Origin: Candidatus Adlerbacteria bacterium
GTDB taxonomy: Bacteria > Patescibacteriota > Minisyncoccia > Phycocordibacterales > SBAW01
Length of the DNA stretch: 64,000 nt
Direction of reading: 5' to 3'
Assembly (NCBI GenBank): GCA_003135635.1
Contig: PLCJ01000001.1
Location: 99,418-163,417, forward strand
In this document: piece by piece, positions 4,128 through 44,496 of the stretch
Layout: each line of letters begins with the position of its first letter
Numbering within the stretch: the first letter of the stretch is position 1
Program-made: the position numbers and the translations under genes
Notes under the pieces: model-generated
Seen by the model: only the letters and a program-made list of their open reading frames with translations
The model's database searches: none
Told to the model about the DNA's origin: nothing

Positions 4128-5468
4128 ATGACCACCACGAAAGACCTTTGGGAAAACACTCTCGTTGAACTTGAACTCACTATTTCTCCACCTAATTTCA
4201 ATACTTGGTTTCGAGACACCCATATCGTTCGCGTAGAGGACAATACCGTGTATCTTGGGGTGCCGAGTCAGTTTGCCCGCGATTGGCTTTCGCGCAAGTT
4301 TCATAAGGATATTTTACGCTCGCTGCGCGGACTCTCTGAGAACGTGCGCTCTATTGAATATATAATTTCCCGCGGCACTAAAAAGACTCCGGAGGAGATT
4401 GTTTCTACCCCCGCTGCTCCCTCAGAGCTCCCGCTTGAGGCGGTGCACACAAAAAGTAATCTAAATCCTCGCTTCACTCTTTCGAGTTTTGTCGTGGGAC
4501 CTTTTAACGAACTCGCCCACGCCGCAGCCCAAGCAGTGATACGAAAACCAGGTATTGCGTACAACCCTCTCCTCATATACGGTCCTACGGGGCTCGGCAA
4601 AACGCATCTCATTCAAGCAATAGGAAATCACTTTCGCGTACACGCGCCCGACAGAAAGGTGTTTTACATGACCTCTGAAAAATTTTCTATGGATTACGTC
4701 TCAGCGCTTCAGGCAGGAAAAGTCCATAGTTTTAAAGAGCGATACCGACAGTATGATCTCCTGGTCATGGATGATGTGCAATTTCTTGCAGGCCGCGACA
4801 AGATAAAAGAGGAGTTCTTCCATCTCTTTAATTATCTCTATGACGGTAATAAGCAATTAGTATTTACTTCGGATCAACATCCAAATTTTATTCAGCAACT
4901 GGAAGACCGCATCAAATCGCGCCTGAGTGCCGGTATGATCGTTTCTATAACCCCACCGGATCACCAATCGCGTTTGGCAATTGTTCGAGCAAAAGCGGCG
5001 GTACACAAAGTCGTGCTTTCTGATGAAATTCTCGATTATTTAGCAGCAACAGTTGAAGGAAATGTGCGTGAGTTGGAAGGGGCTCTTAATCTTCTTCTCA
5101 TTCAATTTGAAATGCGAGAAGGACCACTCACACTTGCCGACACAAAGAATATTTTGCGAACCGCCGCGGGGACAGCAAAAAAAGCAGTGTCAGTAGGAGA
5201 GGTAGTAAAAATAATTGCAAATTTTTATGGCATAGAAGAGACGAGTATTTATGAAAAAACGAGACGCAAAGAGGTTGTGCGGCCGCGACAAGTGATTATG
5301 TTTCTCCTGCGTGATGATTTTCACCTCTCATTTCCTGCGATAGGGGACAAGATGGGCGGTCGTGATCATACAACAGTTATTCACTCTTGTGACAAAATAA
5401 AAAATGAGCTTCTTTCAGATAGTATCCTTAACCAAGAGATTAGCCAGATTCGTCTGATGTTGAAATGA
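4128..5468 (+). CDS. dnaA: Chromosomal replication initiator DnaA
   Basis: Walker [11 protein letters not shown], Walker [12 protein letters not shown]-terminal DnaA-box binding domain ([11 protein letters not shown]); divergent from rpmH. Confidence 0.95.
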
Positions 5469-5675
5469 TGGGGAAAAGAGCACAACAGTCTGTGGAAAGT
5501 ATGCACCAATTATCTGTTAGTAATATAGTTTTTGACTCTTATACACACTGTACTATTGTTATCCCCGCAGCGCTTCGGATAAATACCTCAAGAGAGACCT
5601 ACATAAAAATGACATATCCACCAATCCACAGCACTAGTAATAGTAATAGAGTATAAATAGATACCTATACACACT
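5469..5675. promoter_or_regulatory. Putative oriC segment with DnaA-box-like 9-mers (dnaA-dnaN intergenic)
   Basis: TTATACACA (5539-5547), CTATACACA (5666-5674), TTATCCCCG (5559-5567), AATCCACA (5623-5630) resembling the DnaA-box consensus TTATCCACA; AT-rich stretch; additional box TTCTCCACA at 4053-4061 upstream of dnaA. Confidence 0.45.
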
Positions 5676-6773
5676 ATGCGATTTGAAACTCCCACCGAAC
5701 AATTTCATAACGCAGTATCTATAGCTGCTCGGTTTGCTGAGAGGCGAGCAAACCTCTCCGCGCTTGCAGGTATTCTTATTGCTGCAGAAAATGGAAGAAT
5801 TCTTCTACGAGCTACTAATCTGGAATGCGGTGTTGAAATCAGCCTACCGGCAAAAGTGACTGAAGGAGGAGTGGTGGCTATTCCAGCACATACGCTTCAG
5901 GGGTTTATCTCTAATGTTCGTGGTAAGTCGGTATCTGTGGCTCACGTTGGTGAAGTAGTTCGTGTAGAAACTGATCGAGCGGTTGCTTCAATAAAAACTC
6001 TACCCGCAGATGACTTTCCTATTTTGCCACGAGTATCTGCCTCAACAGTATTTACCATTAAATCAAACGATCTCACCCGTGTGATTCGCAGCGTTGCGTT
6101 TTGTGCTGCAACATCAACTATTAAGCCGGAGCTACAAAGCATATTACTCTTTGCCGATGCAGGGAAGCTCAGCGCTGTAGCGACAGACTCTTTTCGTCTT
6201 GCAGAAAAAACTGCTTCCTTGCGCTCTGGTGGTAGTGTGCCACACCTTCTCCTTCCCGCACGAAACGCGGTGGAGTTTATGCGCATTCTTGAAACATACC
6301 AGGGCGATATTGATGTGTATTACAACGAAAATCAAATTTCAGCACACATTAACACAATCTATTTCACAAGTCGTCTTGTTGATGGATCTTTTCCTAATTA
6401 CCGACAAATTATTCCTGCCTCCTTTAGCACGGAGGCCGTAGTATTACGGGAAGACTTTTCTCAGGCGCTCAAATCGCTTTCTATCTTTAGTGATAAATTT
6501 TTCCACATGTCCTTTGCAATAGAACCTAGCAAAAAAGCACTTATTCTTTCTTCGCACAATCCTGATGTTGGTGAGCAAACATCAACAATACATGCAGCTA
6601 TTTCCGGAGAGGCGGTCACGATGTCATTTAATAGTCGTTATCTTGCCGACAGCCTACAAGCAATTAGTGGCGAAAGTATCCGCATACTTTCAAACGGGAT
6701 GGGGAAAGCAATTCTTATTAAAGATGCGGCAGATGAATCATTTCTCTATCTCGCGATGCCCATGAACCGTTAA
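5676..6773 (+). CDS. dnaN: DNA polymerase III beta sliding clamp
   Basis: 365 aa, three-domain clamp-like sequence directly after dnaA. Confidence 0.9.
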   Translation: MRFETPTEQFHNAVSIAARFAERRANLSALAGILIAAENGRILLRATNLECGVEISLPAKVTEGGVVAIPAHTLQGFISNVRGKSVSVAHVGEVVRVETDRAVASIKTLPADDFPILPRVSASTVFTIKSNDLTRVIRSVAFCAATSTIKPELQSILLFADAGKLSAVATDSFRLAEKTASLRSGGSVPHLLLPARNAVEFMRILETYQGDIDVYYNENQISAHINTIYFTSRLVDGSFPNYRQIIPASFSTEAVVLREDFSQALKSLSIFSDKFFHMSFAIEPSKKALILSSHNPDVGEQTSTIHAAISGEAVTMSFNSRYLADSLQAISGESIRILSNGMGKAILIKDAADESFLYLAMPMNR

Positions 6774-8929
6774 ACGGGCGGGGCTCCGATAGGACTCGTT
6801 GTTGGGACTCCTTGAGGACCATTAAATCCGTTCTGTATTCCCCACTGCACAACCGGAGGGTCCCACAGGCGAAATTCCGGATCACTAGAAGGGTTTGTGA
6901 GAGGTGGTCCATTGGGATTATTTTTGTTCACCCAGTAGAGAATCTCATGGAGATAGCCATCAGCACCCGGTATTTGCCAATCTCCTTGTAATATAGGCTT
7001 GAGTCCTGTCGTAGTGGCCGTATCGTTTCTTACGAAAGAAACGTTTGGAAGTGTGTTTATCGCATAATCCATAAATTCGTGCCACATGGGACCCACAATA
7101 AAGCCAGACACTTTTTTTACCATGGGGCTATTATCGTTATTACCTGCCCAGACACCCACTACTAGGTTCGGGGTGTAGCCAATGGTCCAAGCATCACGAT
7201 AATTATTGGTGGTACCGGTTTTAACGGCAACGTCGTGGCCCGGGAAACTTAAAAATCCATTTTCACCAAGCGGTGCGCGCGCAACTGCATCGGAAAGTAT
7301 GTTATTGATACTTTCTGCAATCGAGTTTTGCAGTATAGGGGTTCCTTCTACTTGCGTATTGTCCTCGATGGCATTGCCATTTTGATCTTCGACCTTAAGC
7401 ACGGCGATAGGAGCGTAGTGCGTGCCATTAGTCGCAAACGTGTCATACGCACCCACCATATCAAGGAGTGTCACTTCGCCACCACCAAGCACCAAGGTGA
7501 GGCCATACTGGCCTGGGTCGCCCAAAGTCTCCACACCCATGCTTTTGGCAAGCGTTAGTGTGTCACTAATGCCAGCAAGGTAGAGCACTTTGACCGAGGG
7601 CACATTTATTGATTGGGCAAGAGCGTCGCGAAGGGTCATAGGTCCACGAAATTTATTATCATAATTAGTCGGAGAATAGCAGTTAGGTTGGCCGGGTGTA
7701 AAATCATTTGCTGCACAGTTAGTTGAGAACTGTGTGGGGACGTCAAATACTACCGTATCGGGTGTATAACCTTTTATAAACGCTTCGGCATAGGCAAACG
7801 GTTTGAACGACGAACCGGGCTGGCGCGATGCCAAGGTGACATTGTAATTGCCATCAATAGTAGTATCAAAATAGTTGCGCGAGCCGACCATCGCAAGTAT
7901 CTGTCCCGTATTGGGGTCAAGAGCCACAAGACCGGCGTTTGATGCATTGAATGTTTTTGCGTTTGAGAGGGCCCATTTTTGTACGATTGCTTGTGCTTGT
8001 GTCTGCATATCGGCATTAAGAGTGGTAATAACCTTCCACCCACCATGCTGAAGCACATCAATTCCATATTTATTTTCTAGATACTGTTGGACATAAAAAA
8101 CAAAATGCGGAGCGAGAATAGAAGTCGTTTGCAGCGGCTGAAAGACCACTTGTTCGCTCTGCGCTACTGTCAGCTGCTCTTGGGTGATATAGCCGTATGC
8201 AAACATTTTTTGCAGCACCAGATTCTTACGGGCATCCAGGTCACTCCTGTGATTCCCATAGGGAGAGTAGTATGTCGGAGCAGGGAGCACGGCCGCTAAA
8301 TATGCCGCCTGGGCGAGGTCGACATCGCTTGCATGAGTATTAAAAAAAGTTTCTGATGCCTGTTCCACTCCGTAAATATTTCCCCCATAGGGTGATTGGT
8401 TGAGATAAATCTCCAAAATCTGATCTTTAGAGAGCGAACGCGTGAGTTTAAGCGCCAATACCCATTCCTTCAATTTGCGCGTAATACTTTTGTCATTAGA
8501 GAGGATGGTTTCTTTGACGACTTGCTGGGTAAGGGTGGAACCGCCCTGTACCGACCCGCCATGAAGAACATCCGCCAGGAATGCGCGGATAATTGAGGTT
8601 GGTCGAATGCCGCTATTTTCATAAAACGTAGCATCTTCTATGGCAATAGTCGCATCCTGGATGTTTGGAGAAATTTGGGATAGCGGCACTACGGTGCGGC
8701 GCGTATCATTATTAAGATCATACAGAAGGACCGTGCCCGTGCGATCATATATATTTACTGATTGTTCTACTACTCGGTTTTCAAGCGAGGACAGGTCGGG
8801 GAGTTGTAGTGTCGAGGCCCACAACAAAAAAATTCCTGCTAGAGCGAAAAACCCTCCTCCTATCCAGAGCAGAGTTGTTTTCCAGTGTTTTTTTATGGAG
8901 CGTAGAAACTGCTTTTTTGAGAAGCGCAT
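6770..8929 (-). CDS. Class A penicillin-binding protein (PBP1a; glycosyltransferase + transpeptidase) with Pro/Asn/Gly-rich C-terminal tail
   Basis: GT51 motifs (IAIEDATFYEN, GGSTLTQQ), transpeptidase SxxK (SSFKPF) and KTG (KTGTT); start placed at internal MRFSKK preceding the TM helix. Confidence 0.85.
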   Translation of the reverse strand: MRFSKKQFLRSIKKHWKTTLLWIGGGFFALAGIFLLWASTLQLPDLSSLENRVVEQSVNIYDRTGTVLLYDLNNDTRRTVVPLSQISPNIQDATIAIEDATFYENSGIRPTSIIRAFLADVLHGGSVQGGSTLTQQVVKETILSNDKSITRKLKEWVLALKLTRSLSKDQILEIYLNQSPYGGNIYGVEQASETFFNTHASDVDLAQAAYLAAVLPAPTYYSPYGNHRSDLDARKNLVLQKMFAYGYITQEQLTVAQSEQVVFQPLQTTSILAPHFVFYVQQYLENKYGIDVLQHGGWKVITTLNADMQTQAQAIVQKWALSNAKTFNASNAGLVALDPNTGQILAMVGSRNYFDTTIDGNYNVTLASRQPGSSFKPFAYAEAFIKGYTPDTVVFDVPTQFSTNCAANDFTPGQPNCYSPTNYDNKFRGPMTLRDALAQSINVPSVKVLYLAGISDTLTLAKSMGVETLGDPGQYGLTLVLGGGEVTLLDMVGAYDTFATNGTHYAPIAVLKVEDQNGNAIEDNTQVEGTPILQNSIAESINNILSDAVARAPLGENGFLSFPGHDVAVKTGTTNNYRDAWTIGYTPNLVVGVWAGNNDNSPMVKKVSGFIVGPMWHEFMDYAINTLPNVSFVRNDTATTTGLKPILQGDWQIPGADGYLHEILYWVNKNNPNGPPLTNPSSDPEFRLWDPPVVQWGIQNGFNGPQGVPTTSPIGAPPV

Positions 8930-20321: not shown

Positions 20322-21554
20322 CTAAGTATATCCCAGCTTCTTAAGCTCTTCCTCAGCGACTCCCTTATCACTCCATATCTCTTTGCTACCACTGGGCCCC
20401 ATAATATAGGGATCAGTGCCTTTGCCGGTAATGAGTACTGCATCACCCTTCTTAGCCTCTTTGAGCCCGGAGGCAATGGCAGCGCGGCGATCAAGAACAA
20501 TGTGCGGATGTTTCGTCGTAAACCCCTTTGCGACCTCCTCGATAATGTGACGTGGATCCTCATCGTAGGGGTCTTCATTGGTGAGTATCGCGACATCACA
20601 AAATTCCTCCACAAGCTTTCCCATCTCACGTCGCTTCCAGGTATCGCGCCCTCCACCAGTTGCTCCAAGCACGCCGATTATTCTATGCATACGATAAGTC
20701 TCATATAATGCGCGAAGTGAATCGGGCGTGTGCGCATAATCAACAATGACGCTAAATGGCTGATTCTTTTCAACACGCTCGGCGCGACCCAAAATAGGAG
20801 GAATATGCTCCAGAGCCTTTTTCATATGTCCGCGCGGGATGCCGAGCGCCTCCCCCAGAGTGAGCGCAGCAAGCGCATTCTTAAGGTTAAAAACTCCAGG
20901 CAGTGGCATCGTAAATAGCTCCCCACGCCACATAAAACGCACTCCGCGATCATCAACTTGATAGGGTTCGGCATCTTGAAGTGAGAAAGGAGCTTTAACA
21001 TCTACATCAATATTAAGAAAGGCTTCACCATACGCGTCATCGACATTGGCAACCATAATCCGTGGACGCTTCGACGAGCGCACCAGACTCTGAGCTAAAG
21101 AAAGTTTCGCTGCAACGTAGTTCTCCATCCCGCCGTGGGACTCAAGATGCTCTGGTGCCAGATTGGTAAAAATAAGCGCATTCATCTCAATGCCTTTGTG
21201 GCGGAATTGTCGAGCGCCTTCTGATGTCATTTCGATAACTGCGTGTGTCACGCCTTCATCAATCGCAGCGCGCAAAAAACGTTGTAAAAAAAAGCGCCCC
21301 GGCATCGTCATCTTAAAAAGATTTCGCTCGCTTCTCTCTCCTATCGCAAAGCGGATCGTGCTTGCAAGCGCGACCCTATATCCAGCCTCAGTAAGCATGG
21401 CTCCAACAAGCTCAGCGGTTGTAGATTTGCCTTTGGTGCCGGTGATCCCGATAATCACGAGTTTTTTGGAAGGGAATCGGTACCAGAATGCTCCGAGGTA
21501 GGCAAGAAAAAAATGATAGGCGTTTATCCACTGCTTCGGAACCAGTCGTTTCAT
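20322..21554 (-). CDS. murE: UDP-N-acetylmuramoyl-L-alanyl-D-glutamate--2,6-diaminopimelate (or L-Lys) ligase MurE, short form
   Basis: Mur ligase P-loop IIGITGTKGKSTT; MurE-specific block TNLAPEHLESHGGMENYVAAK..NVDDAYG..GVFNLKNALAALTLGEALGI closely parallel to the E. coli MurE central domain. Confidence 0.8.
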   Translation of the reverse strand: MKRLVPKQWINAYHFFLAYLGAFWYRFPSKKLVIIGITGTKGKSTTAELVGAMLTEAGYRVALASTIRFAIGERSERNLFKMTMPGRFFLQRFLRAAIDEGVTHAVIEMTSEGARQFRHKGIEMNALIFTNLAPEHLESHGGMENYVAAKLSLAQSLVRSSKRPRIMVANVDDAYGEAFLNIDVDVKAPFSLQDAEPYQVDDRGVRFMWRGELFTMPLPGVFNLKNALAALTLGEALGIPRGHMKKALEHIPPILGRAERVEKNQPFSVIVDYAHTPDSLRALYETYRMHRIIGVLGATGGGRDTWKRREMGKLVEEFCDVAILTNEDPYDEDPRHIIEEVAKGFTTKHPHIVLDRRAAIASGLKEAKKGDAVLITGKGTDPYIMGPSGSKEIWSDKGVAEEELKKLGYT

Positions 21555-33221: not shown

Positions 33222-33644
33222 ATGGCAAAGAAAATAACTAAAAAGATAAAGATTATTGCTCCCGGTGGAGCAGCTATCCTCACTCCTGCAATGGGACAGG
33301 TGTTGGGACCTGCAGGCATCAATATCGGCGAGTTTGTGAAGCGTTTTAATGAAGCTTCTAAAGACATGAAGGGTGATCTTGTCCCAGCGGAGATTACGGT
33401 GTACCAAGATCGAACCTATGATTTCGTGCTCAAAACTCCGCCCGCGTCCTCACTTATTCTTAAAGCAATTGACAAAGAAAAAGGTTCAGGAAAACCAAGT
33501 ATTTCAAAAATTGGGACCATTTCTAAAGAAAATGTGCGTGAAATCGCTCAAAAGAAAATGCGCGATCTCAATGCTAATGATCTTGATGCAGCAATGAAGA
33601 TCATCGCAGGCTCGGCTCGCTCCATGGGAGTGGACATTAAGTAG
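33222..33644 (+). CDS. rplK: 50S ribosomal protein L11
   Basis: MAKKITKKIKIIAPGGAAILTPAMGQVLGPAGINIGEF ... canonical L11. Confidence 0.9.
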   Translation: MAKKITKKIKIIAPGGAAILTPAMGQVLGPAGINIGEFVKRFNEASKDMKGDLVPAEITVYQDRTYDFVLKTPPASSLILKAIDKEKGSGKPSISKIGTISKENVREIAQKKMRDLNANDLDAAMKIIAGSARSMGVDIK

Positions 33645-34287
33645 CCTTTTTCTTTTTAGGTGGTGCCCATCTGGTAAATTTAAGAATCTGAAGCTCAAAA
33701 GGCGTCACCTTGCGCAGGCGGGGGATCATTTTTTTGGGGAGCACGGGGAAATGCGGAGATGCATCCAGATCCTCTGCAAGCCAATTTAGATTCTTCTCCG
33801 CAATGAGCCACTTCTCTACGGGATAGCGCCTGAGGTCAAAGGGTTTTGAAAATGTACGGAATGATTTTTTCCCGTCGTGTAAAAAATATTCGTGAAAGTA
33901 CGACATCGCGAGTTCGCGGATGTTTTTATATATAGGATCGCGCCACTGGAGTATCATATGATTTGTCATGCTTATGGCGCCCCACAAACTCTCTTCTTTA
34001 AAGACCGTAATCACATGGTCTTCATCCGAGGGAAGAGTTTGGAAATCGAGCAAAAGGGGAGGATATCCATGATATCCGAGTACCGCAGCGGCAAATAGTG
34101 CGCCTTCTATACAATGCGCTTTTCTCTCCCTCAGTACTCTGCGGGGGGAGTAAAAGGTCTCTCCTTTTTCTTCAAAATTTATGGCAGTAGCATCTAAAAA
34201 ATCCTGTATTTTTTTTGGAGAGGTGAGTTTTGCAAACACTTTTCGTTCCTTTGGATTAAGAAATTCCTTGATTTTCTGCGCATACAT
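33637..34287 (-). CDS. Hypothetical protein, possible transglutaminase-like Cys-peptidase fold
   Basis: Candidate Cys-His-Asp arrangement (KAHCIEGALFAAAVLGYHGYP ... DHVITVF ... D); weak. Confidence 0.3.
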   Translation of the reverse strand: MYAQKIKEFLNPKERKVFAKLTSPKKIQDFLDATAINFEEKGETFYSPRRVLRERKAHCIEGALFAAAVLGYHGYPPLLLDFQTLPSDEDHVITVFKEESLWGAISMTNHMILQWRDPIYKNIRELAMSYFHEYFLHDGKKSFRTFSKPFDLRRYPVEKWLIAEKNLNWLAEDLDASPHFPVLPKKMIPRLRKVTPFELQILKFTRWAPPKKKKAT

Positions 34288-34322: not shown

Positions 34323-35684
34323 CTATTTTTCTACAATATCGTGCTCACCACGCTTGATATCAAAGCGGTCTTCGCTTCTATCGATATAAAGTGTAAGACC
34401 AAATGTTTCAAGAAGGAGTACGCCGATCTCCTGTGCGACGCGCCGCAAGGTTGGATGGACTGAAATACCTGAGCGCAGCTCCACAAGCCACGTGAGCCCG
34501 GGCAAATCGCCGGTCAGACGGCATGGCACGGAGTATCCCATAGGGATGTAGTATTGCCGATACACTGGCGCAATAGAGAGCTTGTTGAGGGCCGCGCGCT
34601 GTTTTTGTAGAACGCTCAAGGCTTTTTTCCGGAGCTCTTGGGGCATTTGATCGAGATACCATGGAGCAAATTCCCAAGAGTTAGTAAGAAGCGGCATACG
34701 CTGGGTCACAGCTCGATGTCGTTGAAGGTCGCGGAAGGAGCCAAAATCTAAAAAAAACAAGAAACGTATGCTCCCACACTCTGCGAGAAATCTCGGCAAC
34801 TCTGCTTTGATTGGACGATTGGATAGTATCGGTGCATATCTGGCAAGAAGATTTCTGTCTATACCATCACGCTCCACCCGAACGCCAGAGAAAAAGGAGA
34901 TAGGCTCGGAAGTGTTTTGAGTGTTGAGATCAAAGTAGTATGATTCCTTCATCCACTCAGAGACATACTGCTCCGTTGCTTCATAGCGTTTCTGTTTGAA
35001 GGAATTTGGATACATGGTGTTGAGCGCTTCTTCGATAGTGAGGGCTATGGCACGCACTTCATCAAGCGGATGATTTCGCAGGCGAAGCAAGTGATCAGCT
35101 GCATGTCGCAGAGTAGTGTGCCACGCGAGGTTTGTTGCCATACCTGCGGGTAAAAAGCTACGCATAATATCAAAAGCGCGCGCGTTAATTGCTTTTTTCC
35201 ACTTCTTTTCGTCTTCTTCCCCACGAGGATGACGGTCCATAAGCTCTTCTTTCATTGTCGCAAGTCCTTCGGTGTGAAAGGTACGCAATGATTCTGATAA
35301 TTCACTTGCAGATTCATCAGGACTTATAAACGGTTGCGTAGAAAAGTCGACATAACGTGTCGAAGATTCTTGCCCGTTATACAGTTGAGAATCTTGGATA
35401 GCTTTAGCGGCCAGCATGGAAACACCTTCGATAAAAACGGTTGCTGTGCCGCAATCGCCGATCGATTTATCGCCATAGCCTATATAGTAAGTATCCATGA
35501 ACTGCGCAGCGCCTTTTTGCGCAAGTTTCATAAGATGGGCATCTATTCCATGTACAGAGCGAGAATGTAATGCTTGAAGCATTGCTGCTGCCTCCGCAGT
35601 GATGAGTGCACCAGTATCAAGCACGACCACCTGACCACCTCCTTGTAGAGGTTGTCGTACGTGGCGAAGATCCTCTAAGTGCAT
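34323..35684 (-). CDS. thyX: ThyX-like FAD-dependent thymidylate synthase, double-length (453 aa) with motifs split across two halves
   Basis: C-terminal half carries ThyX RHR motif (FRDLQRHRAVTQR); N-terminal half carries S-x-RY motif (QESSTRY) in ThyX-like context but has DSQ where RHR is expected. Confidence 0.55.
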   Translation of the reverse strand: MHLEDLRHVRQPLQGGGQVVVLDTGALITAEAAAMLQALHSRSVHGIDAHLMKLAQKGAAQFMDTYYIGYGDKSIGDCGTATVFIEGVSMLAAKAIQDSQLYNGQESSTRYVDFSTQPFISPDESASELSESLRTFHTEGLATMKEELMDRHPRGEEDEKKWKKAINARAFDIMRSFLPAGMATNLAWHTTLRHAADHLLRLRNHPLDEVRAIALTIEEALNTMYPNSFKQKRYEATEQYVSEWMKESYYFDLNTQNTSEPISFFSGVRVERDGIDRNLLARYAPILSNRPIKAELPRFLAECGSIRFLFFLDFGSFRDLQRHRAVTQRMPLLTNSWEFAPWYLDQMPQELRKKALSVLQKQRAALNKLSIAPVYRQYYIPMGYSVPCRLTGDLPGLTWLVELRSGISVHPTLRRVAQEIGVLLLETFGLTLYIDRSEDRFDIKRGEHDIVEK

Positions 35685-35696
35685 GGTGTATCGCTG

Positions 35697-36371
35697 CTAC
35701 CTTTTTTTAATATCCTTATCAAGATAGAGACGAGGGAGCATCATCGTGGGTTTCCAACTTTTTTTGATAGAAGAAAGTATGTCGGTGCTTTGATATTTAC
35801 CTCTGTGGGTGTAATCTCTCGCAAGAATAGGCCCCGTTTCAAAAAAGATTATTTGCGCGATGCGTCGTCCCACGACAAGGGGAATGTGATAGCGAGTAGA
35901 GTTGTTAGTAATTTCCATAGTCCAGCGATTAATATACCCGACATCCCCCCATCCAGCGCATTTGCACACTTCTATAAAACTTCGTCCCAAGCTTGAGCGT
36001 GCTTTCATCATGGTAGTAATATGTTCTCTGCCACCAATAAACTCTTCGGTATGTGCCAGTACTGTTTCTCCCGGCGCAAGAAGAATAATTCTATCTTCAG
36101 GAGTGATGCCAGTGAAATCGAATCGATAATTTTTAAGTGTTTCGCGCGCTGTTTTTGCTCGGCATGGTTTTGTACCCCAAACTCGCGTGACGTGTTTTTT
36201 GTCGTAAATGTTATAAAGATTTTCAAAGTTAGACGGATGTTGTTCGATAAAGAAGTATTCCCCAAGCGTTACATCATAACTTGAGGTCGAGAGATTTCTT
36301 CGCTTAAACGGCTCAATGACAATCGAACCCTCTCGCATGTTCTTTAAAATATTTTTATCCGAAAGTGCCAT
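35697..36371 (-). CDS. dcd: dCTP deaminase (dUTPase superfamily)
   Basis: MALSDKNILKNMREGSIVIEP ... KARSSLGRSF ... AGWGDVGY parallels E. coli Dcd blocks. Confidence 0.8.
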   Translation of the reverse strand: MALSDKNILKNMREGSIVIEPFKRRNLSTSSYDVTLGEYFFIEQHPSNFENLYNIYDKKHVTRVWGTKPCRAKTARETLKNYRFDFTGITPEDRIILLAPGETVLAHTEEFIGGREHITTMMKARSSLGRSFIEVCKCAGWGDVGYINRWTMEITNNSTRYHIPLVVGRRIAQIIFFETGPILARDYTHRGKYQSTDILSSIKKSWKPTMMLPRLYLDKDIKKR

Positions 36372-36445
36372 GATTGAGCGGAGTATAACATACGGCTCTT
36401 CGTGGAATATGGTTGCCCCTTAGGAGAGCCTATAGTATAGATACA

Positions 36446-37090
36446 ATGATGAAAGGCAGGCTTCTTATATTTGAGGGCGGAGAAGGTTCCGGTAAATCGT
36501 ATATGGCAAAAATGGCCGTTGAGAAGCTCAATGTTCAAGGTATAAAAACACTGTGGACCCGTGAACCAGGGGGCTCTGTTTTTGCTGAGAAAATCCGCAA
36601 GTTGATTTTATCCGACCATGCAATGCATGCGGACGCAGAAACCATGTTTGGGCTTTTCTGGGCAGCCCGACGTGACCACATTGTGCATAAGATTAAACCA
36701 GCGCTCGAAGAAGGCACGCACGTGCTGTGCGAGCGCTTTGATTCCTCCACCTGGGCATACCAAATTAGGGGACAGCAACAGGGGCAGCTGCGACATTTGT
36801 TTCTTAAAATGCGCAAGCATTATCTTGCTCAAATTCACCCTTCTGCCTACATTCTTTTGAATGTTGATCCAAAAATTGGGCTGCAACGCGTGAAAAAGAG
36901 AACAGAAAGAAAACAAACCCATTTTGATAAACGTAATCTAGAGTTCCATCAACGGGTAAACGATGGACTTATCGAGTTTGTCACTCATATTTCGGATCAT
37001 ATCTATATAATCATTGATGCGAATCGACCTCGGCGTGTAGTTGCAACAGCAGTAATGGATACGCTACATCGCTTGCTCTCACTAGACTAA
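36446..37090 (+). CDS. tmk: Thymidylate kinase
   Basis: P-loop LIFEGGEGSGKS, DRY-like and LID regions; start at internal MMKGR. Confidence 0.85.
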   Translation: MMKGRLLIFEGGEGSGKSYMAKMAVEKLNVQGIKTLWTREPGGSVFAEKIRKLILSDHAMHADAETMFGLFWAARRDHIVHKIKPALEEGTHVLCERFDSSTWAYQIRGQQQGQLRHLFLKMRKHYLAQIHPSAYILLNVDPKIGLQRVKKRTERKQTHFDKRNLEFHQRVNDGLIEFVTHISDHIYIIIDANRPRRVVATAVMDTLHRLLSLD

Positions 37091-37494
37091 GCTCTTTCCA
37101 CCGCACTCGGCGTTTGACCTATGGTGCAAAGAAAAAAGTGGATAACTATTAAAATCTATTTTTAATATGTTCTTATAGTAGAGGAGTTCTGCAATGTTGA
37201 ACTACCTTTCGCTAAATCTCAAAGTGAGGTCTACGGTGGCTGGTCTCCTTGTGTTCGAGTCTCTGGCCGACGCTCTGCGTGCCGGCTTTCAGATTTATGA
37301 TCGCATCCAAGACGGATACTTGGTACGAACCCGAACTCCAACTGGCTGGGCAATGGCCATTGTCAACTGCAAGTAACGATTCCATCGACGTGTCGGGGGA
37401 GTCGATACAAGATGTTCCTGCCACAGCTGGTAGCAGCAAACCGAGGCCGTCCCGAGTATTTTCTTACCGGGCGGCCTCACTTATAATAGCCTCT

Positions 37495-37815
37495 ATGGTC
37501 ACGCATCCTTATCACACAGCTAATTGTCCAGAAGCAAAAGGGAAGGTCGGACCTACTCTGGGAATACTAGCTACCCTTGCTGGCATAATCGGACCGTTCA
37601 ACATTATTCCGCAGATAGTGGAGATATTTCAAACAAAGAGTATAGCCAATGTATCGCTTTTAACGTATTCAATTGTAATTGCTATCCAGGTTGTATGGCT
37701 TGTATATGCTCTTAAGCTTTCTCTTCGTCCGCTGATCATTTCCAGTCTTGTTGTTCTAGTCTTAAGTGGTGTAATTATATTTCAATTCTTTTTATATGGT
37801 GGTTTGAGAGTATAA
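37495..37815 (+). CDS. PQ-loop / SemiSWEET-like 3-TM membrane protein (~106 aa)
   Basis: GIIGPFNIIPQIVEIFQTKS PQ-loop motif followed by two further TM helices; listed ORF extends 5' with non-membrane sequence, start uncertain. Confidence 0.45.
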   Translation: MVTHPYHTANCPEAKGKVGPTLGILATLAGIIGPFNIIPQIVEIFQTKSIANVSLLTYSIVIAIQVVWLVYALKLSLRPLIISSLVVLVLSGVIIFQFFLYGGLRV

Positions 37816-37917: not shown

Positions 37918-38487
37918 TTATTTTGTACCAGTAGATCCAAAGCCACCAGCACCTCGTTGAGTTCCATCCAAATCTTGATAGGCGGTGACTTCTGTGATCT
38001 CCGGAATGAGGGCTGTCTGAAAAACAATCTGAGCAATACGTATGTTGTGGTGAAGATCGAACTTGCTCTTATTGCGATTGTATACCAGTACGCCAGCTTC
38101 TCCTCGATAATCAGGGTCGACCGTCCCAGGTGCATTAGTGACCGTAATACCATACTTGGAAGCGAGGCCACTTCTTGGTGCTACCCAATAGAACATTGGG
38201 TATGGCATCTCTGTAACGAAGCCGATGCCAACCAGAACCGATTCTCCAGGGTCCATTCGGTATACTAGTTCACCGCCTTCGGTTTTCACGATATGGCGGC
38301 TAATTTCTGGATCGGTGGGAATTGTTTCGAAGTCGAAAAGTGTTTTCCGGAGACTCGAGTTATGGGGATCCATTTCTCGAGGGCAAATAATTGCTCGAAG
38401 CGAGACATCATAACCGATGGCTCCGTCTGTTTGCCGCTTGGGAAGTTTTCCACCGGGTAAGACATAAATCTTCAGACGAGACTGCAT
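37918..38487 (-). CDS. dut: dUTP diphosphatase with internal insertion
   Basis: dUTPase motifs I-V: GAIGYDV, RSGLASKYGI, GTVDPDYRGE, RIAQIV, RGAGGFGSTG; ~40 aa insert between motifs I and II. Confidence 0.85.
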   Translation of the reverse strand: MQSRLKIYVLPGGKLPKRQTDGAIGYDVSLRAIICPREMDPHNSSLRKTLFDFETIPTDPEISRHIVKTEGGELVYRMDPGESVLVGIGFVTEMPYPMFYWVAPRSGLASKYGITVTNAPGTVDPDYRGEAGVLVYNRNKSKFDLHHNIRIAQIVFQTALIPEITEVTAYQDLDGTQRGAGGFGSTGTK

Positions 38488-43233: not shown

Positions 43234-44496
43234 ATGTACAATTTTGTAGAAATGCAAGACAAAGAAGTACTTCAGATTCTCACAGGGGAGGAAAAACGCG
43301 AAGCAGAAGGACTTGAACTTATTCCATCTGAGAACTACGTCTCGCAGGCTGTACGAGAGGCAAACGGTTCTATTTTCACTAACAAATATTCAGAAGGATA
43401 TCCTGGGAAACGATATTACGGCGGTCAAACATATACTGACCAGATTGAGATATTAGCGATAGAGCGTGCAAAAACATTATTTAGCTGTGGCTATGCGAAT
43501 GTGCAGCCATTGTCGGGAGCGAATGCAAATATCGCAACATACTTCGCTCTTCTTTTACCGGGCGACACGGTGCTTGGCATGGATCTCTCTCATGGGGGAC
43601 ATCTTACTCACGGTGCGCCAGTCACCTATATCACCAAATTTTTTAATTTTGTGCGCTATAAGATGAAAAATCCGGATACTGGTGAGATTGACTATGAGGA
43701 AATGCGCAAAGTCGCTCTTGAAGTGAAGCCAAAAATACTTCTTGCAGGGTTTTCGGCATACTCGCGTGAACTTGAGTATGACAAATTTGTCTCCATCGCG
43801 CGAGAGGTGGGAGCCTATGCGGTCATTGATATTGCCCATATTGCAGGCCTTATTGCGGGAGGGGTGGCAAAAAATCCATTTGATTACGGATTTGACATCA
43901 TGACTTCTACCACCCACAAGACGCTACGTGGTCCGCGTGGAGGTCTTATTCTCGTGCGTGAAAGCGAAGAGTTGGCAAAAAAAATAGACCGGGCTGTTTT
44001 TCCTGGACTTCAAGGAGGTCCTCATATGCATACTATTGCTGCAAAAGCGATCGCATTCGGCGAAGCAATGCAACCTTCTTTTAAAGTGTATACTGCACAG
44101 ATTTTAAAAAATGCCAAAGCAATGGAAACGGTTCTCCACGATCGCAAAGTACGTATGCTCGGTGGAGGTACCTCAAATCATCTTATTCTCGCAGACGTGC
44201 ACGGATCCCTCGGTGTTGGAGGCAGAGAAGCTGAAGAGATTCTCGATAGCGTTGGCATTACGCTCAATAAAAATATGATTGCAAATGACACGCGACCACC
44301 TCTGGACCCTTCTGGTATTCGCTTTGGTACTCCTGCAATCACCACTCGGGGCTTTACCGAGAAAGAAAGCGCACAAGTAGCGAATCTGCTACTTGATGGA
44401 ATTGCGCATCGCGGCGACAAAATAAAGCTTGACTCCATACGGCAAGAAATACGAAAGATGTGCATACAATTTCCCATACCCGACTCATTTGTATAA
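43234..44496 (+). CDS. glyA: Serine hydroxymethyltransferase
   Basis: SHMT N-terminus ELIPSENYVS, PLP-lysine motif TTHKTLRGPRGG. Confidence 0.9.
   Translation: MYNFVEMQDKEVLQILTGEEKREAEGLELIPSENYVSQAVREANGSIFTNKYSEGYPGKRYYGGQTYTDQIEILAIERAKTLFSCGYANVQPLSGANANIATYFALLLPGDTVLGMDLSHGGHLTHGAPVTYITKFFNFVRYKMKNPDTGEIDYEEMRKVALEVKPKILLAGFSAYSRELEYDKFVSIAREVGAYAVIDIAHIAGLIAGGVAKNPFDYGFDIMTSTTHKTLRGPRGGLILVRESEELAKKIDRAVFPGLQGGPHMHTIAAKAIAFGEAMQPSFKVYTAQILKNAKAMETVLHDRKVRMLGGGTSNHLILADVHGSLGVGGREAEEILDSVGITLNKNMIANDTRPPLDPSGIRFGTPAITTRGFTEKESAQVANLLLDGIAHRGDKIKLDSIRQEIRKMCIQFPIPDSFV

Follow-up and report, generated by a model that had tools for sequence, protein, structure and literature searches.

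The window analysed here, a stretch of 64,000 nucleotides (nt) from Candidatus Adlerbacteria (contig PLCJ01000001.1), contains a gene, here called thyX, for a ThyX of double length. The gene probably encodes an internally duplicated flavin-dependent thymidylate synthase that works as a pseudo-tetramer, (N-C)2, assembled from two fused chains, in which two active sites are live and the other two dead. Each half of the protein has the ThyX fold, the residues of the canonical active site are partitioned between the halves, this partition is deeply conserved, and the gene is associated with those for the other steps of thymidylate metabolism. Its fold and ligands make the double ThyX a member of the ThyX superfamily, but it lacks the contiguous motif, and probably also the four equivalent sites, of that superfamily. 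An earlier reading of the DNA (the original prediction) had noted the strings DSQ, QESSTRY and RDLQRHR in an open reading frame (ORF) of 453 amino acids (aa) and had proposed a fused pseudo-dimer with complementary degeneration of its repeats. The strings are present at aa 98-100, 105-111 and 318-324, and the interpretation is supported by the finding of the ThyX fold in both halves. The protein belongs to a very large and already annotated family and is no oddity of one genome.

Two ThyX folds in one polypeptide

Two ThyX domains were identified within the polypeptide by means of Pfam, AlphaFold 2 (AF2) and Foldseek. The whole protein scores 67 bits in two stretches against the Pfam family Thy1 (PF02511), for which the cut-off is 24.8. 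When the halves were aligned separately with this family, as the original prediction had suggested, the N-terminal half scored 55.5 bits (E 8e-15, aa 45-226 on profile positions 25-190); the C-terminal half reached 15.1 bits (E 0.02, profile positions 55-185) and stayed under the gathering score. The full-length AF2 model, built with 33 homologues, has a mean predicted local distance difference test (pLDDT) of 87.7 and a predicted TM score (pTM) of 0.87, and the order of its secondary structures is repeated in both halves. Foldseek searches of the PDB with this model retrieve ThyX chains only. Because such a search leaves the matching half unspecified, the C-terminal half was modelled by itself (aa 236-453, pLDDT 83.7). 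This second model gives 147 PDB matches at E<=1e-3, and all 50 of the 50 listed are ThyX, with TM scores of 0.5-0.6, including the enzymes of PBCV-1, Thermus, Thermotoga and Mycobacterium tuberculosis. Both models reach the ThyX alpha/beta fold with a probability of 1.00 and TM scores of 0.5-0.62. The original prediction had named an unrelated second domain as the observation that would speak against it, and the exclusive retrieval of ThyX among the listed matches of the C-terminal half contradicts such a domain.

Judged by its sequence, the protein is a very divergent relative of ThyX. A PDB sequence search with the single protein gave no match, and one with the family profile gave nothing beyond a marginal Corynebacterium glutamicum ThyX (E 0.35). 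The two halves align with each other in hhalign at E 0.06 and about 19% identity, and with Thermotoga maritima ThyX, used as a single sequence or as a 40-sequence profile, at E 0.002-0.06; the N-terminal half spans aa 19-236 against positions 3-212 of that profile. These alignments are collinear and statistically weak, and they served residue mapping only. The linker between the halves is the stretch of lowest conservation, with a mean top-residue frequency of 0.54 among close relatives. A C-terminal tail of the form D-R-F..K-R-G..D-I (aa 439-453, window positions 34326-34370) is specific to the family and lies outside the ThyX core. Its R445 is present in 137 of 139 distant relatives and its pLDDT is low; the tail may be a lid or a substitute ligand.

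Table 1. Positions in the window of the double-length thyX, its active-site elements and the neighbouring genes of thymidylate metabolism
Feature	Position	Strand	Remarks
Double-length thyX ORF	34323..35684	-	453 aa plus stop; from ORF listing
N-terminal ThyX-fold half, aa 19-232	34989..35630	-	Lacks RHR; has S-x-RY, R175, R193 and S74
Inter-half linker, aa 235-261	34902..34982	-	Helix H235-248 in AF2 model, then variable loop
C-terminal ThyX-fold half, aa 262-445	34350..34901	-	Has RHR and R404; lacks S-x-RY and equivalents of R147 and R165
Y70-G-D72-K-S74-I-G-D77 loop	35454..35477	-	T. maritima G52-H53-E54-T55 region (hhalign)
D98-S99-Q100	35385..35393	-	At canonical R-H-R place (T. maritima R78-H79-R80); profile alignments
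Q105-E-S-S108-T-R110-Y111	35352..35372	-	Retained S-x-RY half of motif; T. maritima E86, S88, R90, Y91
R175 to R193	35106..35162	-	N-terminal half; R175 = T. maritima R147 (codon 35160-35162); R193 = T. maritima R165, M. tuberculosis R190 (codon 35106-35108)
R318-D-L-Q-R322-H323-R324	34713..34733	-	Retained RHR half of motif; T. maritima R74 and R78-R80
Q377	34554..34556	-	At T. maritima R147 place, phosphate-binding Arg lost; Gln in 134/139
R404	34473..34475	-	T. maritima R174, M. tuberculosis R199, uracil-binding/activating Arg; 139/139 distant relatives
dcd (dCTP deaminase)	35697..36371	-	Pfam DCD 110 bits; TIGR02274 92.6 bits
tmk (dTMP kinase)	36413..37090	+	TIGR00041 142 bits; divergently transcribed
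dut (dUTP diphosphatase)	37918..38487	-	TIGR00576 119 bits; NF001862 119 bits
glyA (serine hydroxymethyltransferase)	43234..44496	+	PF00464 498 bits; NF000586 547 bits; regenerates methylenetetrahydrofolate; 7.5 kb from thyX

Division of the active-site residues between the halves

Residues were mapped on T. maritima ThyX, whose sequence was verified as identical to PDB 1KQ4/1O26 (Table 2). Conservation was assessed in two sets: 81 sequences of species-level genomes (close relatives) and 139 cluster representatives that are 30-46% identical (distant relatives). No contiguous RHRx7SxR(Y) is found in either domain, and the motif is complete only when both halves are combined. In the N-terminal half, the place of RHR is taken by D98-S99-Q100; D98 is kept in 79 of 81 close and 109 of 139 distant relatives, and Arg is never found there. 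The S-x-RY element of this half is invariant in the 81 close relatives and nearly so in the distant ones (S108 and R110 139/139, Y111 134/139, E106 136/139). S74 is likewise invariant (139/139), R175 is present in 131 and R193 in 110 distant relatives, and the position equivalent to R174 is poorly kept, with R203 in 38 of 139. The C-terminal half has R318, D319, R322 and R324 in all 139 sequences and H323 in 124, with Gln at the latter place in 14. A deletion of five residues follows its RHR, at the expected position of S-x-RY. The possible R90 equivalent of this half, R329, is Arg in just 40 of 139 sequences, and the C-terminal half therefore has no conserved S-x-R.

Table 2. Corresponding residues of T. 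maritima ThyX and of the two halves of the window protein
T. maritima ThyX	N-terminal half	C-terminal half
G52-H53-E54-T55	G71-D72-K73-S74	None
R74	K94	R318
R78/H79/R80	D98/S99/Q100	R322/H323/R324
E86/S88/R90/Y91	E106/S108/R110/Y111	5-residue deletion
R147	R175	Q377
R165	R193	P395 (or L394)
R174	R201/R203 region	R404
H178	H205	H410 (nearby)

Each ligand of flavin adenine dinucleotide (FAD) and deoxyuridine monophosphate (dUMP) in the canonical set (T. maritima R78/H79/R80, S88, R90, Y91, R147, R165 and R174) is found once per chain and is highly conserved, with R322/H323/R324 and R404 in the C-terminal half and S108, R110, Y111, R175 and R193 in the N-terminal half. The division that the original prediction had described, S-x-RY without RHR in one half and RHR without S-x-RY in the other, is borne out by the T. 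maritima alignment and by the 81 and 139 relatives. Its invariance or near-invariance in both sets shows that the split is not due to chance; it is ancient and universal in the family and no quirk of a single gene. The same conservation bears on the idea that all four sites are live, with degenerate positions replaced by family-specific invariants such as K94, Q97 and D98 or the K444-R445-G446 tail. Many invariants without a canonical counterpart do exist in the family, R445 of the tail among them, but the second site would be without equivalents of RHR, R174, S-x-RY, R147 and R165 all together, and an Asp at the RHR place would repel the phosphates of FAD and dUMP. Four live sites are accordingly regarded as very improbable.

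In the M. tuberculosis and Helicobacter pylori structures, each ThyX site is made of parts from three subunits (PMC6514825). Subunit A provides RHR, which binds the phosphates, ribityl and isoalloxazine of FAD and together with R199 contacts dUMP; subunit B provides S71 and R190, which bind FAD phosphate; and subunit C provides the residues that act on dUMP, namely S105, R107 and Tyr108, the last as a lid (M. tuberculosis numbering; PMC6514825). The Arg equivalent to R404 (M. tuberculosis R199) binds and activates uracil (PMC6514825, PMC8316439), and the ThyX fold is known only in tetramers (PMC6514825). The complementary split is structurally sensible, because each site takes its RHR from one subunit and its S-x-RY from another, and because a canonical site draws its roles A, B and C from three subunits an (N-C)2 assembly can restore complete sites.

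In the proposed enzyme, the C-terminal half would fill role A, with RHR binding the FAD phosphates, ribityl, flavin N1/O2 and dUMP, and with R404 activating uracil. The N-terminal half would fill role C, with E106, S108, R110 and Y111 binding the dUMP phosphate and forming a lid over flavin N5 and uracil C5. It would also fill role B, with S74 and R193 at the FAD phosphates, and would supply R175 as the equivalent of R147 and, in most relatives, the folate-stacking His. A pseudo-tetramer like that of ThyX would then arise from two fused chains and keep one of its three two-fold axes exact. If the subunits of a D2 tetramer are named A to D, its four sites have the compositions (A,B,C), (B,A,D), (C,D,A) and (D,C,B). 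With A and D of the C type and B and C of the N type, sites 1 and 4 would be complete and sites 2 and 3 free of ligands, and the remaining exact axis would relate A to D and B to C, as in a homodimer of fused N-C chains. A live site would thus consist of the RHR of a C-terminal half, the S-x-RY of one N-terminal half and the FAD ligands of the other, with the two reciprocal sites dead. The original prediction had spoken of one composite active site; its composite nature, with parts from both halves, stands, but each dimer should be credited with two live sites. Probably only half as many active sites function as in the usual enzyme.

A different assembly has also been considered, in which the fused chain is a monomer or part of a loose assembly and has one intrachain site, formed by the RHR and R404 of the C-terminal half and the S-x-RY of the same chain. 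The pTM of 0.87 for the single chain, in which the halves are predicted to pack together confidently, is compatible with this, and RHR and S-x-RY are the two elements required to meet. The third-subunit contacts of S74 and R193 would then have to be dispensable or otherwise supplied, but both residues are strongly conserved (139/139 and 110/139), although in a single chain they would sit on the very N-terminal half that fills role C. Canonical roles B and C come from different subunits, so that a second N-terminal half is needed, and the tetrameric state of every known ThyX fold (PMC6514825) also argues against a monomer. An intrachain site is therefore thought unlikely.

The dead sites of the (N-C)2 assembly might have been put to other use. 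In canonical ThyX all substrates compete for a single pocket, and a degenerate pseudo-site could offer a separate place for NADPH or a regulatory nucleotide, so that flavin reduction or allostery would be set apart from methylene transfer. Such a site would be lined by K94, Q97, D98, D313, S316, D319, Q377, H410 and the D-R-F..K-R-G tail. This repurposing is considered doubtful, with a rather small chance of being correct.

Genomic context and thymidylate synthesis

The neighbours dcd, dut, tmk and glyA, which the original prediction had named, are all genuine by Pfam, TIGRFAM and NCBIfam scores (Table 1), and together with thyX they make up a complete route from dCTP through dUTP, dUMP and deoxythymidine monophosphate (dTMP) to dTDP, with regeneration of methylenetetrahydrofolate (CH2-THF). 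The end of dcd, which lies upstream, is separated from the start of thyX by only 12 nt, for which reason the two genes are probably a single operon. A scan for promoters and terminators around this operon gave no more signals than in shuffled sequence. In the proposed pathway, dUMP from the adjacent dcd and dut would be converted to dTMP with a methylene group from CH2-THF regenerated by glyA, and dTMP would be passed on to tmk. No thyA, folA or canonical thyX was found in the 64-kb window by tblastn with E. coli ThyA, E. coli FolA or T. maritima ThyX; this negative weighs little for the whole genome, for which the original prediction had supposed this gene to be the only thymidylate synthase.

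This association recurs among the relatives. The numbers among 80 related loci, counted within 6 kb on either side of the homologue, are 49 for glyA, 44 for tmk, 33 for dcd and 24 for dut. Fusions are also encountered: a protein of 704 aa (P0033, at about 5278-7371 of locus L005) joins a dCTP deaminase to a double ThyX, and another of 625 aa (P0399) joins a dCMP deaminase to one. In phage Tunturi_5, the gene of gp50 follows those for dCMP deaminase and dUTPase. In one Dojkabacteria metagenome-assembled genome (MAG), an ORF of 92 aa lies directly after the double thyX (L068, 7351-7629) and contains only the C-terminus of ThyA; its last 60 residues are 43% identical to the C-terminus of E. coli ThyA (E 7e-10). 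The alignment suggests a thyA remnant, left by displacement of thyA in situ. The role of thymidylate synthase is supported by the neighbours, by synteny in the 80 loci and by the deaminase fusions.

Several points weigh against this enzyme as proposed. The NCBIfam thyX equivalog TIGR02170 scores only 30.2 bits against its cut-off of 87.9, and the C-terminal half alone is weak by sequence (Pfam 15 bits; hhalign E 0.03-0.06), so that its identity as ThyX rests on the predicted fold. That the halves pack like two subunits of a ThyX tetramer is a prediction from the residue partition. The window protein has Asp at D72, where 135 of 139 distant relatives have the folate-stacking His. In several Patescibacteria a gene for dihydrofolate reductase (DHFR; folA, PF00186) lies directly downstream of the double thyX (L063 1707-2168; L052 7353-7754; L008 7471-7944; L034 7350-7445, cut; L087 917-1426). 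ThyX chemistry yields tetrahydrofolate (THF) and not dihydrofolate, and organisms with ThyX are often without folA; a downstream DHFR is unexpected for this reason, and could indicate folate salvage or a different folate product. Finally, no assay of an enzyme of the double-ThyX subfamily was found in open-access full text. Concerning D72, its codon lies at window positions 35469-35471, and Asp is common to the window protein and its closest subclade. The loop from Y70 to D77 has a low pLDDT in the AF2 model, and the H53 loop of T. maritima is mobile in crystal structures (PMC11940539).

The strong divergence of the protein from PDB sequences and from TIGR02170, its presence in jumbo phages, which are frequent base modifiers, the DHFR genes that adjoin it in some genomes and the change of His72 to Asp could also be accounted for by a protein that is no thymidylate synthase. 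It might be a flavoenzyme like ThyX whose substrate or product is different, as in another pyrimidine C5 modification, or a non-catalytic nucleotide binder. However, all canonical ligands of dUMP and FAD are invariant and present once per chain, tight linkage to dcd, dut, tmk and glyA recurs, the protein is fused to dCTP and dCMP deaminases, and a thyA remnant lies beside one homologue. A function other than thymidylate synthesis is therefore held to be improbable, and the duplicated synthase is preferred.

Other ORFs of the window were also inspected. An ORF of 216 aa just downstream of thyX on the same strand (33637-34287, reverse) has a faint transglutaminase-like (DUF553) match and was not found beside thyX in the 80 related loci. 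Between tmk and dut lies an ORF of 188 aa (37249-37815, forward), whose C-terminal part is weakly SemiSWEET-like (40 bits, under the cut-off). A Mur ligase of 410 aa (20322-21554, reverse) was considered as FolC and rejected, as it scores as MurE (TIGR01085, 305 bits); it is without about the first 60 profile positions.

Distribution and comparison with known systems

The double ThyX is widely distributed. A profile search of 1.84 billion representatives retrieved 791 clusters at E<=1e-30, with almost all of the top 150 full length; relaxing the threshold to E<=1e-3 raised the number to 2750. Clusters formed at 90% identity yielded no fewer than 2739 matches at E<=1e-3, and full-length homologues have about 430-480 aa. 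When one genome per species was scanned with a sequence pattern, relatives turned up in at least 472 genomes. The best 80 of these are all MAGs of Patescibacteria, a few of them evidently mislabelled, and include Paceibacterota and Kaiser-, Adler-, Nomura-, Uhr-, Harrison-, Colwell-, Buchanan-, Magasanik-, Dojka- and Zambryskiibacteria. A second profile search adds Moran-, Falkow- and Wolfebacteria, a cable-bacterium record and a protein from a viral metagenome. Among deposited phages, members of the family are encoded by the Vibrio jumbo phages BONAISHI and vB_VmeM-Yong, by Tunturi_5 of Tunturiibacter and by the Microcystis phages Ma-LMM01 and MaMV, and the motif split is also present in the four phage proteins aligned. 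A distant member of 431 aa (L081/L082, 1-13296) lies on a contig of 165 kb that is rich in small ORFs and contains T4_Y16D, DUF6197 and Rv2179c-like exonuclease domains; its NCBI copy is binned in MAG GCA_043771345.1, and the contig is probably a large phage.

Apparent half-length genes among the homologues were rejected. An apparent fission into an N ORF of 248 aa and a C ORF of 208 aa (L086, 3001-4370) is explained by a 1-nt frameshift within a stretch of C around 3685, which is most likely due to faulty assembly, and the short matches that resemble single-half genes are at least partly fragments at contig ends, such as P0354. The source annotation is mostly "FAD-dependent thymidylate synthase" and sometimes "hypothetical protein". 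Annotation pipelines recognise the double ThyX poorly, since it stays below the cut-off of the NCBIfam equivalog, Pfam detects only one of its halves, and it is left as hypothetical in some records.

The double form is common in Patescibacteria and in some large phages and appears never to have been characterised. If the proposed assembly is correct, the main route to thymidylate in a very large share of bacterial diversity, the Patescibacteria, runs through a ThyX that is obligately asymmetric and has half the usual number of sites, and the same asymmetric enzyme is present in several cultured jumbo phages and cyanophages. The surprise is tempered, because the family is widespread and already annotated. 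ThyX of Chlamydia is also about double length and is reported to have been assayed.

Open-access full text was searched for accounts of a ThyX that is pseudo-dimeric, tandem, fused or duplicated; this gave one relevant paper, and none that describes motif partition or a reduced site count in ThyX. In that paper, an uncharacterised "domain-duplicated ThyX" is noted in non-Dehalococcoides Chloroflexi (Valas & Bourne 2009, Biol Direct 4:30, PMC3224940). It may be related to the double ThyX, with which it shares the description of two ThyX domains per polypeptide, and the paper makes no mention of motif partition or site count (PMC3224940). No Chloroflexi are named among the best 80 loci of the genome scan or in the lists of the top 120 matches. 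Should the Chloroflexi protein turn out to be a member of this family, its duplication would count as a rare genomic character with a bearing on the kinship of Chloroflexota and Patescibacteria, for which a sister relationship has been proposed in the phylogenomic literature.

Canonical ThyX (also FDTS; EC 2.1.1.148), represented by T. maritima TM0449 (PDB 1O26) and M. tuberculosis Rv2754c (PDB 2AF6/3GWC), has the fold common to both halves of the window protein and resembles that protein in its FAD and dUMP ligand set and in its genomic tie to dUMP supply, dTMP kinase and serine hydroxymethyltransferase. Its solved chains, however, have 216-270 aa, a contiguous RHRx7SxRY and a homotetrameric structure with four identical sites, whereas the window protein has double the length, a motif spread over two diverged repeats and two predicted sites, and the sequence similarity between them is marginal. 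The phage proteins (Ma-LMM01 gp020, 491 aa; BONAISHI ORF269, 480 aa; Tunturi_5 gp50, 518 aa; and that of vB_VmeM-Yong) are of the same family as the window protein, with GQExSTRY and no RHR in the N-terminal half and RDxxRHR in the C-terminal half, and a superposition along the whole chain was obtained with BFVD model A0A6B7EUB9 (TMq 0.84). They differ in being only 22-34% identical to it, in the extra insertions of Tunturi_5 and Ma-LMM01, and in their annotation as thymidylate synthase, thymidylate synthase-like or hypothetical.

The alpha'2 type of tRNA-splicing endonuclease, in which a dimer of tandem-repeat chains with specialised repeats replaces an ancestral alpha4 homotetramer, offers an analogy and no homologue, its fold and chemistry being unrelated. 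The archaeal enzyme has four architectural types (PMC5829648). In the proposed model, the double ThyX is a clear example of how the repeats of a homo-oligomeric enzyme subfunctionalise once its chain has been duplicated internally. In work of 2004 (PNAS 101:7252), Leduc and colleagues reportedly engineered ThyX heterotetramers from complementary inactive mutants and placed the sites at a three-subunit interface. The logic is the same, in that different subunits supply the parts of one site; those heterotetramers are laboratory mixtures of point mutants, whereas here the asymmetry is natural, ancient and fixed by duplication and fusion. The double ThyX would be a counterpart in nature to the mixing of mutants by which the ThyX active site was located, and the role of each subunit could be mutated separately in a single gene.

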